32,783 nucleotides of DNA, from assembly GCA_050309765.1 (NCBI GenBank), contig JBNRMU010000050.1:1-32783 (forward strand). The letters are read 5' to 3'. Source of the stretch: Christensenellales bacterium. Its GTDB lineage: Bacteria; Bacillota; Clostridia; Christensenellales; UBA1750. The translations under genes were made by a program, and so were the position numbers. Shown here in pieces: positions 11,349-17,351 of this stretch (its first letter is position 1; every line of letters begins with the position of its first letter). The notes under the pieces were generated by a model. That model searched no databases and was not told where the DNA came from. It worked only from the letters and a program-made list of their open reading frames with translations.

Positions 11349-12445
11349 ATGAGCGAAACCTTCAATCTGCAGGAATACATGTCCAAAGGCGTGTCCCTTC
11401 TGGTGTCCGACGCCGTGCGCGCCACCTTCAAAAACCCCCGTGAGACCCTTTTCCTTGCCAAATTTGGCAGGGCGGCCGCCGCGGCCAGCCAAAAGCGCCT
11501 TAACGCCGAGCAAAAGGGCGAGCACGTGCCGCCCTTCCTCATCGCCAGCATCACCAGCAGCTGCAACCTGCACTGCGCGGGCTGCTATTCGCGCCAGAAC
11601 CAGGCCTGCCTGGACGACGAACCCGTGGAGCAGCTCTCCGGCGACGATTGGGACAAGATCTTTACTGAGGCCGAGGATTTGGGCGTGAGCTTCATCCTGC
11701 TGGCGGGCGGCGAACCCCTGTTGCGCAAGGACGTGATCGACGCCGCTGCGGGACACGATAAGCTGCTGTTCCCCATCTTCACCAACGGCTATTTCATCGG
11801 CGAAAAATACATGGACATGTTCGATAAGCATCGCAATCTGCTGCCCATCATCAGCATCGAGGGCGACGAGGCCGCCACCGACGCCGCCGCGGCGACGGCG
11901 TGTATCAGGTGGTGCTGCAGTCCATGCAAAGCCTTAAGGCCCGCGACCTGATCTTTGGCGTGTCCATCACCGTGACCACGGAGAACATGCAGCAGGTCTA
12001 TTCCCGCGAATTTATCGACAACCTCGTCTCCCTGGGCTGCCGGGCGATGATCTTTGTGGAATATGTGCCCGTTTCCGAGGAAACAAAGCGCCTGGCCCCC
12101 TCCGAACCCGAGCGCGAATACGCCGCGCAGCGCATCGCCGTTTTGCGCGACGAGGTGCCGGAGATGGTGTTCATCTCCTTCCCCGGCGATGAAAAGGAAA
12201 CCGGCGGCTGCGTGGCCGCGGGCCGCGGCTTTTTCCACATCAACTCGCACGGCGGCGCAGAGCCCTGCCCCTTCTCTCCCTATTCGGACATCAACGTCAG
12301 GGATACCTCCCTGCGCGAAGCGCTGAACTCCCGCCTGTTCCAGGCCCTGCAGTCGGACGGCATGCTGGACGATTTCCACACGGGCGGCTGCGTGCTGTTT
12401 GAAAAAAGGGCCCAGGTGGAAGCCTTCCTGGCGCAAAACGCTTAA
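11349..12445 (+). pseudogene. Radical SAM/SPASM(twitch)-domain protein split by a 1-nt frameshift near 11885 (pseudogene or sequencing error)
   Basis: N-half has CNLHCAGC and LAGGEPL; C-half has GGCVAAGRGFFHINSHGGAEPCPF. Adding one C after 11885 gives ...ATDARRGDGVYQ... and a single 365-aa ORF. Confidence 0.85.
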
Positions 12446-12469: not shown

Positions 12470-12501
12470 GGGAGCGAACCAAATCGGTTCGCTCCCTTTT
12501 T
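12470..12501. terminator. Terminator between convergent genes
   Basis: GGGAGCGAACC/GGTTCGCTCCC perfect 11-bp stem + TTTTT. Confidence 0.85.
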
Positions 12502-12504
12502 CGT

Positions 12505-12930
12505 TTAGTCCATGCTGCCCTGGCCGCCCATCTGGTTTGTCAGCTCCCGGATGTATTCCAGGGGAAAGGGCGGCGATGTCAGCGGTTTTAGGGCCAGGGA
12601 CATCAGCTTCATCGGGTTGTCGTCCGCGGCGATGCGGTTTTGATGCAGCACGCCGCAGCGGCGGCAGCGGTGAATGATGGCCCACTCGCCGTTCTTTTTC
12701 ACCCACACGGACACCGGCTCCATCAGCGCGCCGCAGTCGGCGGCGCGGTCGCCCGGCTCCACGTCCAGATGCAGGCTGCAGAGGCAGTTGGGGCAATGGT
12801 TGCGGTGCCCGCTGCCCGCGCCCTCGGGGATCACCGGTCGGCCGCATTGCCGGCAGGTGAAGGTCTCGTCGGACGGGTGGGTTTTGTAATAGGTTTTGTC
12901 AAACGTTCTTCTTTTGTTCTCGCGATTCAC
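12505..12930 (-). CDS. RNHCP domain protein (Zn-ribbon type), 141 aa
   Basis: GTG start at 12930 after AGGAGG; FTCRQCG, HRNHCPNCLCSLH, PGDRAADCG, HRCRRCG, NRIAADDN. Confidence 0.92.
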   Translation of the reverse strand: MNRENKRRTFDKTYYKTHPSDETFTCRQCGRPVIPEGAGSGHRNHCPNCLCSLHLDVEPGDRAADCGALMEPVSVWVKKNGEWAIIHRCRRCGVLHQNRIAADDNPMKLMSLALKPLTSPPFPLEYIRELTNQMGGQGSMD

Positions 12931-13238
12931 GGGTTTTCCTCCTGCCTGGCGCCGTCCGGCGCGCTCTGGGAGGGTTCGCATTCGCGAAGAATCCTTTGAA
13001 TGCTCTTTTCGGACAGGAAATAGGTTTGTGCCAGCTCCTTTACACCGACGCCACCGCGAAAGTCCGCGGCAATCTGTGCGTTGCGCCTTTGCAAAAACTC
13101 CTTCGCCCCGCTGACGCTGCCCCACGCGCTGCGCGCGCAAGTTTTGCGGGGAATATAAAGCAGCCGTCCATCCACATATTCCTGTACCAGCAGGAGCAGT
13201 TCCTTGGGCAGGACATCCTGCGCCTTGCTATAGCCCAT
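12927..13238 (-). CDS. CD3324-family protein (Mor-like helix-turn-helix)
   Basis: MGYSKAQDVLPKELLLLVQEYVDG..LYIPRK...RNAQI...ELAQTYFLSEKSIQRIL; RBS GGAGGG; 4-nt GTGA overlap with the RNHCP gene. Confidence 0.85.
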   Translation of the reverse strand: MGYSKAQDVLPKELLLLVQEYVDGRLLYIPRKTCARSAWGSVSGAKEFLQRRNAQIAADFRGGVGVKELAQTYFLSEKSIQRILRECEPSQSAPDGARQEENP

Positions 13239-13313
13239 GCTTTCCCTCCAGTGTTAGCGAATTTGGCTTTGGGAAAGCGACGGCTATCGGGTTTTGTGCG
13301 CGTAGCCGTCGCT
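13239..13313 (-). promoter_or_regulatory. Attenuator-like leader RNA
   Basis: 11-bp stem AGCGACGGCTA/TAGCCGTCGCT (13276-13313). Competing 8-bp GCTTTCCC/GGGAAAGC pairing (13271-13278 with 13239-13246) covers the SD-to-start region. Confidence 0.65.
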
Positions 13314-13362
13314 AGCTGCGCACAGCCTCCGCTTCATAATTCCTAAACATGAAATCATCCAT
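13312..13362 (-). CDS. Putative leader peptide (MDDF)MFRNYEAEAVRS (start 13362 or 13350)
   Basis: AAAGGA-type RBS before each of two in-frame ATGs; TAG stop overlaps the 5' arm of the 11-bp stem. Confidence 0.5.
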   Translation of the reverse strand: MDDFMFRNYEAEAVRS

Positions 13363-13401
13363 CCTTTCTTTCCTTTGGGCGGTACAGGCCGCCTTTATTG
13401 T

Positions 13402-13430
13402 ATCTTAACATGGGAAAACATCGCGAACAA
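13402..13430 (-). promoter_or_regulatory. Promoter of the leader-CD3324-RNHCP transcript
   Basis: TTGTTC-N17-TAAGAT with TG extension. Confidence 0.6.
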
Positions 13431-13507
13431 GCCTAAGAACGATTTTAGCCGTTTTCGCGCAATGTGTATGAATTTAGAAACGGAATAACAGCTTTGCTTT
13501 ACGGTAA

Positions 13508-13536
13508 TTGTACTTTTGCTATAAATATGTTATCAT
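13508..13536 (+). promoter_or_regulatory. Promoter of the PfkB kinase gene
   Basis: TTGTAC-N17-TATCAT with TG extension. Confidence 0.5.
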
Positions 13537-13620
13537 TTGTTTAGATGCGCGTCCCGCCTGCCGTGGGCGGCGTCGCGCTCCCAAACACAAAAATTCAACA
13601 CAGACAGGAGTGCGTTTTTC

Positions 13621-14574
13621 ATGAGAGACGTTGTGGCGCTCGGCACGCCGTTTATGGATTATCTGGTTCACATCGACCACCTTCCCACAAAAAAGGACGA
13701 AGGCGCAAGGATCCTGCAAACCAGCTGGCAGGGCGGCGGCAAGGTGTCCTCCGCGCTGGCGGCGCTGGGACAGCTGGGCCGCAACGGCTCCATGATGGGC
13801 GTGATCGGCAGCGACAGCTATGGCGACTTTTTGCTGCGCGATTATGAGCGCTTCAATATCGACGTATCGCACATGATCCGCGACGGCGCCAACTCCTTCT
13901 CCCTGGTGCTTTCCGATAAGATCACCCAGGGCCGCAACATCATCGGCCGCCCCGGAACGGGCCGCAAATACACCGTGGAGGACATCGACGAGCCCTTCGT
14001 GCGCGACCACCGCATGCTGCACTTAGAGCGCGCGGACGCGCCCTCCCACCGTCTGGCGGATATTATGCACGACTGCGGCGGCCTGGTCGCCTTCGACGGC
14101 GACGGCTTTTCCGAAGAAACGCAGGCCATGCTGCCCAAGATCGACGTGTTCATCGGTTCTGAATTCTATTACAAGGCCCTGTTCGGCGAGAGCGAGAACT
14201 ATAAGGAAAACATGCTGACCCTGCAGCGCAAGGGCGTCAAGATCGTGGTCTTCACCTTGGGCGACAAAGGCTCCGTGGCCCTGTGGAACGGCGGTTACCG
14301 CTTCTGTCCCGGCTACAAGATCGACGTGGTCGATACCCTGGGCGCCGGCGATGTGTACCACGGCGGCTATCTGTTCGCCCTGCTCGAGGGCATGGACCCC
14401 GGCGAGTGCGCCCAGTTTGCCAACGCCGTGGCCGCCATCAAATGCATGGGCATCGGCGGCCGCGCCAACACCCCCAACTACCAGATGGTGCGCGATTTTA
14501 TGGCAACGGGCGACTTCGACCGCACGCTGGTGCAGCAAAAGACCGCGTTTTACGCCAATTTCAGCGTAAAGTAA
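13621..14574 (+). CDS. PfkB/ribokinase-family carbohydrate kinase
   Basis: Start reset to ATG 13621 (RBS CAGGAG); GGGKVSSALAALGQLG, GVIGSDSYG, VVDTLGAGDVYHGGY signatures. Confidence 0.92.
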   Translation: MRDVVALGTPFMDYLVHIDHLPTKKDEGARILQTSWQGGGKVSSALAALGQLGRNGSMMGVIGSDSYGDFLLRDYERFNIDVSHMIRDGANSFSLVLSDKITQGRNIIGRPGTGRKYTVEDIDEPFVRDHRMLHLERADAPSHRLADIMHDCGGLVAFDGDGFSEETQAMLPKIDVFIGSEFYYKALFGESENYKENMLTLQRKGVKIVVFTLGDKGSVALWNGGYRFCPGYKIDVVDTLGAGDVYHGGYLFALLEGMDPGECAQFANAVAAIKCMGIGGRANTPNYQMVRDFMATGDFDRTLVQQKTAFYANFSVK

Positions 14575-14751: not shown

Positions 14752-15264
14752 TTACACAAACTCAAGGATGACCATCTCGGCGCCGTCGCCCTTGCGGGGA
14801 CCCATCTTCAGGATGCGGGTATAACCGCCGCCCTGACCGAGCTCTTCCTTGCGCTTTTTGTACTTGGGGCCATATTCGCGGAACAGCTTCTCCACCACGG
14901 GATGCTTGTTGTCCTTGGTGCGTTCCTTGAACTCAGCCTTGGACTCGTCGGCCTTCTTGACCTCTTTGATGTCGTACAGATACGCCATCATGATGCGGCG
15001 CGCATGCAGCTTGGAGGGCGCGTCGTTCACAAAGGTCTCCGTTACGGTCTGACCCTTCTCGTTGTTGAAGGTCTTCTGCACTTCTACGGTGTTATCGCAC
15101 TCGCGCATGGCCAACGTCACGAACTTTTCAGCGATGGAGCGCACTTCCTTGGCGCGCGCCTCAGTGGTTACGAGCTTACCGTTCCAGATCAGCTGGGTAA
15201 CCTGGTTGCGCAGGAGCGCCTTTCGCTGGTCGGCCGGCTTGCCGAGTTTGCGCTGCATAGGCAT
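14752..15264 (-). CDS. rplQ: 50S ribosomal protein L17 (long, 170-aa form)
   Basis: [20 protein letters not shown]...TTEARAKE...[19 protein letters not shown]; RBS GGAGGG; follows rpoA. Confidence 0.96.
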
Positions 15265-15286
15265 AGGTGTTTCCCTCCGTTTAAAG

Positions 15287-16231
15287 TTACTCCTCGCTGC
15301 GCCTGAGGCCAAGCCCCAGAGCGGCGAGCTTTTGCTCCACTTCCTCAAGCGATTTCTTGCCAAGGTTGCGGACCTTCATCATGTCCTCCTCGTTGCGCTG
15401 GATCAACTCCGCTACGGTGTTGATGTTTGCACGCTTGAGGCAGTTGTATGCGCGCACGGAGAGATCCAAATCCTCGATGGTCATCTCCTGCACTTTTTCC
15501 ATCTTGTTGTCCTCGGGCTCGTTAAAGTCCACGGGGGCAACGTTTTCGGTCAAATTGATAAACAGCATCAGATGCTCAGAGAGTATCTTCGCCGCCATGG
15601 ATGTGGCTTCGTCCGGCTTGATGCTTCCGTTGGTCCATACTTCCAAAGTGAGCTTGTCGTAATCCGTAACCTGGCCCACGCGGGTGTTTTCCACGGTGTA
15701 GTTCACCTTGCGGATGGGCGTGAAGATGGAGTCTACCGGCAGCACACCGATGGGCATGTTGGGGGTCTTGTTCCTTTCCGCGGAAAAATAGCCGCGGCCC
15801 TTGTTCAGGGTGATCTCCATATTCAGGTTTGCGTCCTCGTTCAGCGTGGCGATGACCAGGTCGGGATTGATGATCTCTACCTCTTCGTCATGCACGATGT
15901 CGGCAGCCGTCACGATCTTGGGGCCCTGCTGCGAAATGGTCACAACCTTGGGCATATCGGTGAACAGCTTGGCGCACAGGCCTTTGAGGTTGAGGATGAT
16001 CTCCGTGACATCCTCCTTCACTCCGGGTATGGTAGAAAACTCATGCAGAACGCCATCGATGCGAATGGAAGAAACCGCGACGCCGGGCAGAGAGGAAAGC
16101 AGGATTCTGCGCAGGGAATTTCCCAAGGTCGTGCCAAAGCCGCGCTCAAGCGGCTCGATCACGAACTTGCCGTAATCGTTCCCTCCACTGATCTCGACAC
16201 ATTCGATTTTGGGCTTTTCGATCTCGATCAT
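15287..16231 (-). CDS. rpoA: RNA polymerase alpha subunit
   Basis: MIEIEKP...[25 protein letters not shown]...[12 protein letters not shown]; RBS GAGGGAGG. Confidence 0.99.
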
Positions 16232-16300
16232 TGATGTCCCTCCCTCATCAATACGTTCCGGGTACCAAAAAACTGTCATTCATCGGCAAGTCAAGCCGCC

Positions 16301-16927
16301 TTACTTGGAGTAGTACTCGACAACGAGATGCTCTTCGAAGGTCATCTCGACATCCTCGCGCGTCGGGAGCGCCAGAACGCTGCCGGTGAGGTTTTCAGCA
16401 TCGAAGGAGAGCCACTTGGGGAGCGTGCGGGTGCTGCCCTCGCGCAGAGCCTTGAAGTGCTCCACGTCGCGGCTGTGCTCGCGCACGGCGATGGTCTGGC
16501 CGGCATCCACCAGGAAAGAGGGGATGTTGACCTTTTTGCCGTCCACGGTGATGTGGCCGTGGCGGACGAACTGCCTGGCCTGGGGCCTGGAGGAAGCAAG
16601 ACCCATGCGGTAAACCACATTGTCCAGTCTCCTCTCCAGCATGGAGAGCATGTTGTCGCCGGTGACGCCCTTCTGGCGGTTGGCCTTTTCGAAGGTGCGG
16701 CGGAACTGGGTCTCCAGCATGCCATAGGTGCGGCGGATCTTCTGCTTTTCACGCAGCTGCATGCCGTATTCGCTCATCTTGCGGGCCCTGGCCTGGCCGT
16801 GCTGGCCGGGAGGGGTGGGGCGCTTGGTGATGGCGCACTTGGCGGAGTAGCAACGATCGCCCTTCAAAAACAACTTAGTGCCTTCGCGCCTGCACAGGCG
16901 GCAAACGGAACCAGTATAACGTGCCAT
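16301..16927 (-). CDS. rpsD: 30S ribosomal protein S4 (Zn-binding form)
   Basis: [16 protein letters not shown]...[12 protein letters not shown]...[11 protein letters not shown]. Confidence 0.99.
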
Positions 16928-16949
16928 GGTGTACCTTTACCTCCTGTTC

Positions 16950-17351
16950 TTACACTCTTCTGCGCTTGGGCGGACGGCATCCGTTGTGGGGAATGGGCGT
17001 CACGTCCTTGATGAGGGAAACCTCCAGGCCCGCGGCCTGCAGGGAACGAATGGCGGCTTCACGTCCGGAGCCAGGGCCCTTGACATAAACCTCAACGGTC
17101 TTCAGGCCGTGCTCCATCGCGGCCTTGGCCGCGGTCTCGGCAGCGGTCTGGGCGGCGAAGGGAGTGGACTTTTTGGAGCCGCGGAAACCGAGGCCACCGG
17201 CGGAAGCCCAGGAAATGGCGTTGCCAGCGGTATCGGTGATGGTAACGATGGTATTGTTGAAGGAAGAAGCGATATGCGCCGCGCCGCGCTCGATATTCTT
17301 GCGCTCCTTGCGCCTGCGCACGACCCTTCTGGTCCTGGTGGTCTTTGCCAT
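16950..17351 (-). CDS. rpsK: 30S ribosomal protein S11
   Basis: [11 protein letters not shown]...KKSTPFAAQ...[18 protein letters not shown]. Confidence 0.99.

Follow-up and report, generated by a model that had tools for sequence, protein, structure and literature searches.

A conserved leader with an upstream open reading frame is a candidate ribosome-sensing attenuator of CD3324-family genes

Background

What controls the small operon in which a CD3324-family gene is followed by an RNHCP-domain gene? The example considered here lies on the minus strand of a 32,783-nucleotide (nt) stretch of DNA from a Christensenellales bacterium (contig JBNRMU010000050.1 of assembly GCA_050309765.1), which we call the window. 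An initial annotation noticed that the region before the CD3324 start codon contains a short upstream open reading frame (uORF) and competing hairpins, and proposed that expression depends on ribosome position or stalling. Our comparative analysis suggests, with moderate confidence, that this leader is on balance probably an erm-like, ribosome-sensing translational attenuator of the CD3324-RNHCP mRNA. The reading is based on the elements themselves, their conservation, covariation in one helix (helix B), energetics calculated in silico, and an RNA-library contig of the size expected for the transcript.

Results and discussion

A leader that recurs upstream of CD3324 genes

Relatives were reached by two routes. 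A scan with an RNHCP alignment, using one genome per species, matched 600 stretches; 522 of them were confirmed as relatives, and the best 80 were kept. In 17 of these best 80 RNHCP loci, a CD3324 gene lies directly upstream, and all 17 CD3324-RNHCP operons found in this way carry the same leader. Its parts occur in the order Shine-Dalgarno (SD) sequence, uORF of 7 to 12 codons (for example, MKKETQVS, MKRYVVVA or MRYYESAAR) with its stop inside CATAGCRATGGCTAT, variable loop, ATAGCCRTYGC, TTCC-type anti-SD, AGGAGG SD and ATG-G/AGC-TAT. The ortholog in a genome of the same genus (G001, locus L007) has a different uORF, MRDLKKKESVRRTA.

The second route used 14 aligned CD3324 proteins to scan metagenomes; of 394 matched stretches, 365 were confirmed as relatives and 80 were kept. 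These proteins share 39% to 54% identity with the one in the window. RNHCP is the downstream gene in only 13 of these 80 loci. Removal of 12 duplicates, three loci with less than 150 nt upstream and one containing N left 64 distinct upstream regions. An automatic test, which looks for a uORF stop beside a GG[C/G]T core and for ATAG[C/T] further on, recognized the leader in 52 of the 64. Their commonest uORF has eight codons (MKRYVMFA, MRRYVMSA, MKKYITAA), and others include MTTDVYSA, MGDPNYVA and MAVNKLCA. The 12 remaining regions comprise variants with a partial motif (L094, L113, L117, L137, L140 and L146) and different leaders. Because the leader was found through two independent kinds of locus search, its conservation does not depend on the search route. 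With the exception of one 100% identical protein (L091), the CD3324 proteins of the compared loci are 39% to 59% identical to that of the window.

CD3324 genes are present in 50 of 399 genomes sampled across the class, often as multiple copies and with up to five per genome. Among 30 loci fetched from different genomes, a strict motif test recognized the leader in six; five more (L179, L184, L188, L190 and L197) are variants by eye, and the remainder have other uORF-containing leaders. A covariance model of the leader, slightly biased because 15 nt of coding sequence are part of it, detects a single copy in the genome of the window and matches in three of 149 other genomes of the class, all adjoining a CD3324 gene. 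CD3324 relatives also occur in 32 plasmid records, and none was found in a phage collection.

Other CD3324 genes have different surroundings. A second family member in the window's own genome (L002, contig C79:24036-24278 of G000) lacks the leader and starts 19 nt after an open reading frame (ORF) of 356 amino acids, followed by one of 327 amino acids, a context shared with L005 and L006 from other genomes. In another CD3324 subgroup (L003, L178, L181, L182, L187, L189, L192, L200 and L203), a longer uORF extends from a strong SD, and this uORF crosses the main SD and start codon in another frame.

The uORF is conserved in its existence, length and end point

The uORF of the window (MDDFMFRNYEAEAVRS plus TAG) occupies 13312..13362 on the minus strand, with the stop codon at 13314-13312. 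A second in-frame ATG at 13350 would give MFRNYEAEAVRS. We aligned 67 leaders, namely those of the window and L007, 49 rows from metagenomes and 16 from genomes, after leaving out identical stretches and the truncated L026. The short ORF reported in the initial annotation is borne out by this alignment: a uORF whose stop stands at the conserved structural position is present in all 67 leaders. Start codons are ATG (58), TTG (eight) and GTG (one), and the stop is TAG in 65, including L007 by direct reading, and TAA in two. A C follows the stop in 64 of the 67, and GCA is the last sense codon in 41. The length ranges from seven to 14 codons and is eight codons in 40 leaders. Within the eight-codon group, the best-kept inner residues are Arg3 (21 of 34), Tyr4 (22 of 34) and Val5 (22 of 34). 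To judge by these alignments, the family-wide constraint is on the existence, the length and the end point of the uORF.

The frame that is presumably translated can be named from the same comparison as that of MFRNYEAEAVRS, because its stop occupies the conserved place. The initial annotation had also pointed to a second frame with a K-R-R (+X+) motif, of the kind associated with macrolide arrest. That frame is present in the window and is not conserved, given that an ORF ending at its TAG occurs in 18 of the 67 leaders. Arrest at a macrolide +X+ motif was rejected as a candidate: the conserved frame of the window has no +X+, and most uORFs of the family also lack it.

A purine-rich SD region of the uORF, AAAGGAAAGAAAGG, is read from the sequence at 13363..13376. 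In the family, an SD-like 4-mer occurs within 12 nt before the uORF start in at least 42 of the 67 leaders, for which 12 nt of upstream sequence were kept.

Hairpins that compete for shared segments

The whole 181-nt leader folds only moderately better than shuffled sequences (z -1.96, with five of 200 shuffles equally good). Three of its helices are conserved among distant relatives. Hairpin A (13295..13324, minus strand) pairs the last uORF codons and the stop (segment 1) with a segment just past the stop (segment 2), which is also the 5' arm of hairpin B. Folded alone it has -16.7 kcal/mol (z -2.06, 8/200 shuffles), and it is formed in the minimum free energy (MFE) structure of the ribosome-free leader. 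Across the family it has a median of -9.4 kcal/mol, and 62 of 67 leaders give a z below -2.

Hairpin B (13276..13313) pairs segment 2 with segment 3. It consists of a perfect 11-base-pair (bp) stem, 13313-13303/13286-13276, with a 16-nt loop, and folds alone with -20.5 kcal/mol (z -5.13, 0/200 shuffles). As noticed initially, the stem begins in the uORF stop codon, precisely at its A, and the comparison with relatives adds covariation. In the 67 leaders, 93.3% of 804 helix B cells are paired, versus 21% to 51% when the partner is slid. Cells in which both partners have changed number 38, versus 11.6 in shuffles, and none of 500 shuffles reaches 38. Four pairs covary; for example, columns 86/163 hold UA in 41 rows, AU in 10, GU in six, UG in four, CG in three and unpaired bases in three. 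One inner position is mismatched in 20 rows. The same-genus ortholog L007 has two compensatory pairs in this long stem. The spacing between its arms ranges from 11 to 61 nt, and the loops vary.

Hairpin C (13239..13278) covers the ribosome-binding site (RBS) of CD3324. Its anti-SD, GCTTTCCC (13278-13271), shares 3 nt with the 3' arm of hairpin B and pairs perfectly with GGGAAAGC (13246-13239), which lies inside the SD GGAGGGAAAGC (13249-13239) and beside the ATG at 13238. This pairing, too, was recognized in the initial annotation and holds among relatives. Because MAFFT misaligned the region, 59 distinct sub-sequences were folded singly, a per-sequence fit that leans towards the helix. At least three-quarters of the SD core is paired in 58 of the 59, with a median of -11.1 kcal/mol and a mean z of -3.3; the pairs beside the SD include AU, GU, GC, UA and CG. 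The hairpin of the window alone has -13.1 kcal/mol (z -2.46, 3/200 shuffles).

A further pairing links the leader to the coding sequence. The core of segment 3, ATAGCC (13282..13287), lies in the 3' arm of B, and its alternative partner is segment 4, GGCTAT (13230..13235), which forms CD3324 codons 2 and 3 (Gly-Tyr). The two are paired in the ribosome-free MFE structure. Among the 67 leaders, ATAGC is present at the first place in 65 and GCTAT at the second in 61. The series TAGC/GCTA/TAGC/GCTA at the stop, just after it, in the 3' arm of the long stem and in CD3324 codons 2 and 3 is found in 48, and recurrence of the core at four places is a prediction of a chain of alternative pairings. The CD3324 protein has a conserved M-G/S-Y start. 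Because these Gly/Ser-Tyr codons fix the fourth core, the stems would be kept in sequence and not in pairing alone. Comparative conservation, and not a single sequence, places the layout beyond chance.

Several further pairings were considered and set aside. The alternative TAGCGA/TCGCTA pairing proposed initially is possible in the window, and elsewhere it is not conserved, with two occurrences among the 67 leaders, both from the window's organism. Pairing of an SD-like GGAG in the uORF with the anti-SD was seen by eye in about half of the first 19 leaders and is absent from the commonest eight-codon group. A 1:4 pairing, in which the end of the uORF meets the main start, is confined to an RNHCP-linked subgroup and was rejected as a general element.

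One strain variant was also recovered. The leader of L091, on a metagenome contig, has three base differences from that of the window. At the bulged base that precedes the stop codon, a synonymous change replaces AGC by AGT. The remaining two changes fall in the loop region of hairpin C, and one of these is inside a weak inner 3-bp stem. All three spare helices A and B and the 8-bp core of C.

Modeled ribosome position changes access to the CD3324 start

As an estimate of accessibility, we calculated the opening energy, which is the free energy required to open positions -15 to +12 around the CD3324 start while a ribosome footprint on the leader is masked. For the first 19 leaders, opening costs 10.5 kcal/mol in free RNA, 9.9 with the ribosomal peptidyl site (P-site) five codons before the uORF stop, and 15.8 with the P-site at the last sense codon. 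The corresponding values for the 52 metagenome leaders are 12.4, 9.2 and 15.0 kcal/mol. In the window, the cost is 11.5 in free RNA, 9.9 to 10.4 with the P-site four to six codons before the stop, and 17.6 to 18.2 at the last two sense codons. The difference between the last codon and the position five codons before the stop averages +5.8 (sd 2.4) in real leaders, versus -0.3 (sd 1.7) when the part from stop to SD is shuffled, and it is at least 3 kcal/mol in 85% of real versus 2% of shuffled leaders. Folding with and without a ribosome footprint, which had been suggested as a check, therefore reveals an RBS opening energy that changes with ribosome position, unlike that of the shuffled controls.

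The predicted structures of the window follow the same course. Free RNA contains hairpin A, ATAGCC (13287-13282) paired with GGCTAT (13235-13230), and the anti-SD paired with the SD. With a ribosome in the middle of the uORF, the long stem forms and the start codon region is freed. With a ribosome at the stop, the ATAGCC:GGCTAT pairing stays.

These states suggest how the leader could act as a sensor of ribosome position that controls initiation of CD3324 translation, with RNHCP following through the overlap of the two genes. When no ribosome is on the uORF, segments 1 and 2 would form hairpin A, and segment 3 and the anti-SD would hold the SD, the start codon and codons 2 and 3, keeping the gene off. 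A ribosome that reaches UAG would cover segment 2 as well, so that segment 3 would stay on the start region and the gene would be most tightly off. A ribosome arrested about four to six codons before the stop would cover segment 1 and leave segment 2 free to form hairpin B with segment 3. Formation of hairpin B would release the start codon and codons 2 and 3, leaving the short anti-SD:SD hairpin alone and making initiation easier. In this scheme we infer the translation of the uORF, the stalling, the polarity of the switch and the signal. Judging from the gene neighborhoods of relatives, the signal would most likely be a translation inhibitor or another translation stress.

A second leader type at stand-alone RNHCP genes

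RNHCP genes that lack a CD3324 neighbor have a leader of their own. In 63 such loci, a motif test flagged 41, of which 39 have a uORF of 10 to 19 codons that ends at or runs over CCGGGAGG. After this motif come CCTCCC, AAAG, a loop, CTTT and the SD; the CCTCCC anti-SD can pair either with the CCGGGAGG motif or with the RNHCP SD. The leader occupies about 110 nt before RNHCP (locus position ~1390-1500) in L011, L016, L019, L030, L033, L035, L038 and approximately 30 more. Its uORF typically has 10 to 12 codons, as in MKNYFDSVLAG. At codons -5/-4, the bases NNG-GAG/GTG are conserved and the residue at -5 varies, which points to a constraint at the RNA level. In the 32 leaders whose uORF does not exceed 13 codons, opening costs 9.7 in free RNA, 6.6 to 7.1 with the ribosome in mid-uORF and 13.0 at the stop.

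Like the CD3324 leader, this second leader combines a uORF with alternative hairpins and the same modeled dependence on ribosome position, and it would control genes of the family to which the other gene of the window operon (RNHCP) belongs. It differs in its unrelated sequence, in having one CCTCCC anti-SD with two partners, and in the absence of a CD3324 gene. That two unrelated leaders before one gene family share the same modeled logic was counted in favor of the attenuator reading.

The operon and its transcript

The CD3324-family gene (12927..13238, minus strand) encodes 103 amino acids and matches NF040785 with 106.3 bits against a cut-off of 65. Its stop codon and the GTG start of the RNHCP gene overlap as GTGA (12930-12927). 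The RNHCP gene (12505..12930, minus strand) encodes 141 amino acids and matches PF12647 with 133.8 bits against a gathering cut-off of 24. It is followed by a bidirectional terminator-like hairpin (12470..12496), with 12 pairs and T-runs on both strands. Within the leader, the scanner detected no terminator-like site on the minus strand.

Each of ten RNA runs contains half or more of the words sampled from 12500-13450, and four of them, all metatranscriptomes of anaerobic digesters, were examined. Each yielded one contig without differences from the window (12503-13384, 12508-13388, 12508-13384 and 12524-13364), with a word depth of 19 to 100 and adapter letters beside seven of the eight contig ends. 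Together these contigs span 12503..13388 and run unbroken through the leader, CD3324 and RNHCP on the minus strand. The upper ends at 13384-13388 lie 6 to 10 nt inside the transcript start predicted at ~13395, and the lower ones are at the RNHCP stop. These positions agree with a transcript that continues from the leader, without termination there, into CD3324 and RNHCP. No contig over the flanking genes was obtained from these runs, which is not evidence that those genes are silent.

Beyond the operon, a radical SAM/SPASM gene on the plus strand (11349-12445) appears to be split into overlapping frames, 11349-11951 with the Radical_SAM domain and 11900-12445 with SPASM, by either a frameshift or an assembly error.

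How well the attenuator reading holds

The idea that the leader has an ermC/cat-like layout that depends on ribosome position is supported in part: the uORF and helices are conserved, helix B covaries, and the repeated core and the energetics agree with it. The second frame with K-R-R and the TAGCGA/TCGCTA pairing find no support among relatives.

Several points weigh against the attenuator reading. The 67 leaders encode 50 distinct uORF peptides, so that the peptide is unconserved, and variability and entropy by codon position within these uORFs reveal no third-position pattern or coding signature; an arrest peptide of specific sequence is therefore unsupported family-wide. RNAalifold on the 67 leaders recovers helix B alone; the bases of helices A and 3:4 are nearly invariant and hence show no covariation themselves. 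Common descent of the leaders means that both their independence and the P values are overstated. In the modeling, a footprint of -12 to +13 around the first P-site base was assumed on the basis of toeprint distances. Relative to the ribosome-free state, the gain is approximately 3 kcal/mol for the family and only 1 to 1.6 for the window. Under the masks, the SD-AUG region of the first 19 leaders rises from a mean unpaired probability of 0.27 to 0.36 at most. The SD is paired with the anti-SD in every modeled state, and thus the modeled switch is partial. Finally, the RNA-library contigs cannot prove RNA ends, strand or levels, and DNA may be present in RNA libraries.

The variable peptide would suit a role of translation as such, and one alternative is positive translational coupling without a sensor, in which ordinary translation of the uORF would be required to melt structure over the CD3324 start and any regulation would act on uORF initiation. 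Coupling of this kind operates in plasmid replication genes with leader peptides, such as tap/repA of R1. In the RNHCP-linked subgroup, the uORF end (TCATAGC) can pair with the main start (GCTATGA), and a translating ribosome would melt this pairing. However, the alignment by eye places no such 1:4 pairing in the commonest subgroup, and a modeled ribosome at the uORF end gives the highest RBS opening cost of all, 15.0 versus 12.4 in free RNA. We therefore consider coupling unlikely.

The conserved stem might instead be a binding site for a protein, such as CD3324 itself in autoregulation, a ribosomal protein or another RNA-binding protein, in which case the uORF would be secondary. The stem bases are indeed unusually conserved, with four helix B pairs (GGCU/AGCC) invariant or varying in one of 67 rows while the loops vary, and the leader always accompanies CD3324, whatever the cargo. 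However, the invariant bases are accounted for by the chain of complementarity that ends in codons 2 and 3, and a protein site would leave the conserved uORF length and stop position unexplained. A DNA operator is unlikely because the arms are 11 to 61 nt apart. On these grounds a protein site seems improbable.

A third alternative is that the uORF and hairpins act on transcription or on the fate of the mRNA, through Rho-dependent termination or RNase access, in the manner of whiB7 or bmrCD. Attenuation of transcription controlled by a uORF has been proposed in a report on whiB7 (PMC10274678), and three U residues follow hairpin B. However, the leader has no terminator-like site on its own strand, the stem is followed in the family by mixed sequence such as TATTCC, and the RNA-library contigs cross the leader into both genes. 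Moreover, the paired parts are the SD and the start region. We doubt this explanation about as much as a protein site.

Rfam 15 gave no match in the window at the gathering score. A permissive search (E up to 10) of 13100-13650 returned one chance match of 11 bits alone, and among 12 related loci, the second RNHCP leader type included, nothing was found except a 5S rRNA. On that search alone a riboswitch of an unknown class would be conceivable, yet a ligand-binding riboswitch or a functionless set of chance palindromes is very improbable, given that the loops and junctions, where any ligand pocket would sit, are unconserved in sequence and length, and that conservation across proteins 39% to 59% identical, together with covariation, excludes chance.

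Promoter and 5' end of the leader

A promoter, a small GGCGG/CCGCC hairpin and an RBS for the uORF, all on the minus strand, were part of the initial description and are indeed present in the window. The putative promoter (13402..13430) has a -35 element TTGTTC (13430-13425), a 17-nt spacer and TGT plus a -10 element TAAGAT (13407-13402). The consensus scanner passed over it because its -35 element fits the consensus at just three of six positions, and the reading is supported by position. A -35-like GAGGTTGC motif is found in relatives, equally distant from a TA-rich -10 element.

The hairpin GGCGG/CCGCC (13377..13394) would stand at the predicted 5' end of the mRNA. Folded alone, it has -9.1 kcal/mol (z -2.46, with five of 200 shuffles equally good). 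Other family members have unrelated small hairpins at this position, and it may serve as a stabilizer. On the plus strand, the complement of this hairpin (13377-13394) is followed by a T-rich run and was scored as terminator-like; this site looks incidental because no plus-strand gene ends nearby.

Further upstream, minus-strand ORFs that resemble rplQ, rpoA, rpsD and rpsK, as named by eye from their translations, occupy 14752-17351. A gene for a pfkB-family kinase on the plus strand (13618-14574) separates them from the CD3324-RNHCP operon.

CD3324 proteins, their cargo genes and a possible role

CD3324 is probably a small DNA-binding protein of a helix-turn-helix-like kind, as judged from models and profiles. 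It scores 24.0 bits on the Pfam family Mor, just below the cut-off of 24.9, and its structure model is helical (predicted local distance difference test score, 74.7). Foldseek gave no match to this model at E ≤0.001; the weak top matches were sigma region 4, LuxR-type, Mor and Mu C proteins, and a profile search of PDB sequences returned similar kinds with E values of 0.008 or worse. An RNHCP profile found chance-level zinc-finger matches alone among PDB sequences, and hence no solved relative by sequence.

The genes that follow CD3324 are diverse. We scanned the products of 30 genes that lie downstream of CD3324 in metagenomes, 25 of them at loci where the leader test recognized the leader. 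Pfam assigns 12 to class I methyltransferases, seven to DUF1062, two to GNAT, two to alpha/beta hydrolases, and one each to DUF2441, CxxCxxCC, an RsgA-like GTPase and a FusB-like EF-G-binding protein (L150, which has a leader of a different type); three have no family. For 12 cargo proteins scanned with NCBIfam, five of them methyltransferases, no match exceeded the cut-off. On the Clostridium acetobutylicum megaplasmid pSOL1 (L171, 60359-64616), a CD3324-family gene that has a 19-codon uORF leader of its own is followed after 170 nt by a gene annotated as a chloramphenicol acetyltransferase, which scores 203.5 bits on the CatA model, below the cut-off of 270. A Bacillus mycoides plasmid carries a CD3324 relative upstream of a gene for a hydrolase of the metallo-beta-lactamase fold. 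By eye, three distant plasmid CD3324 loci have uORF leaders of their own with alternative pairings. From such cargo one may suspect a response to antibiotics or xenobiotics.

A broader and more tentative possibility, drawn by analogy, is that CD3324 proteins are uORF-gated, WhiB7-like switches of Clostridia and Bacilli, in which translation stress would raise the helix-turn-helix protein, which would in turn switch on the adjacent cargo. That cargo would include CatA-type and GNAT acetyltransferases, class I methyltransferases, hydrolases, and the zinc proteins RNHCP and DUF1062. If so, these loci would represent a widespread, modular and inducible response to ribosome-targeting compounds that has so far escaped notice, and RNHCP, whose stand-alone genes have a uORF leader of their own, would be a translation-stress protein. 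CD3324_fam and RNHCP are named families without known function, and the leader would give both a testable regulatory input, translation stress. It could also serve as a compact reporter in a search for inducers. Because CD3324 genes occur beside enzymes of drug-modifying types, the leader may mark inducible resistance or detoxification modules that annotation has missed in gut and digester Clostridia.

Comparison with known systems

Searches of a paper library returned nothing on CD3324_fam, RNHCP or a CD3324 leader. The main text of PMC8632094, which surveyed structured RNAs across 26 genomes, names other uORF motifs, among them odc1, cysS, hflX and Acholeplasma. That main text mentions neither helix-turn-helix nor chloramphenicol; its supplements, outside that check, could list a related uORF motif.

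The closest parallels are the erm leaders, in which, as described in PMC11264731, small uORFs are combined with palindromic repeats and a stalled ribosome leads to alternative hairpins that free the erm start.

In ermC, four segments form the alternative hairpins. As in ermC and ermB, the CD3324 leader has a short leader ORF with its own SD, alternative hairpins and an RBS that is paired in the ground state, and its predicted hairpins 1:2, 2:3 and 3:4 are mutually exclusive in silico, with the regulated RBS in 3:4. Unlike those leaders, it precedes a gene for a small helix-turn-helix-like protein and not an Erm rRNA methyltransferase, its uORF is shorter (typically eight codons) and encodes a variable peptide, a separate anti-SD hairpin persists in all modeled states, and its last segment lies inside the coding sequence, in codons 2 and 3. 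Because the regulated gene differs, the CD3324 leader is not a member of the erm family.

The cat86 and cmlA leaders have a uORF of approximately nine codons just before a hairpin that hides the RBS, and chloramphenicol induces them by a stall a few codons before the uORF end. They are defined by a single RBS hairpin whose 5' arm lies within the leader ORF. The CD3324 leader likewise has a short uORF followed by an RBS hairpin, and the relative on pSOL1 adjoins a CatA-type gene, although that leader differs in sequence from the one in the window. In contrast to the cat type, RBS hairpin C (13278-13239) is free of uORF codons, and the switch would operate via an intermediate hairpin.

In the whiB7 leader of mycobacteria, stalling on a uORF that varies between species is believed to switch on a small transcription factor that drives resistance genes (PMC10274678). 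The mechanism is described as transcriptional antitermination. The CD3324 leader differs in that no terminator was found in it, the RBS is the paired element and RNA contigs cross it; CD3324 bears no relation to WhiB proteins, and any activator role would be putative. The two are alike in placing a uORF in the leader of a small regulator gene, a candidate one in the case of CD3324. On this comparison, we rate the leader as a probable leader-peptide attenuator, widespread, undescribed and tied to the CD3324 family. It would be a clear case of an attenuator held in its sequence by the opening codons of the gene that it regulates, which would account for the conservation of its stems in sequence.

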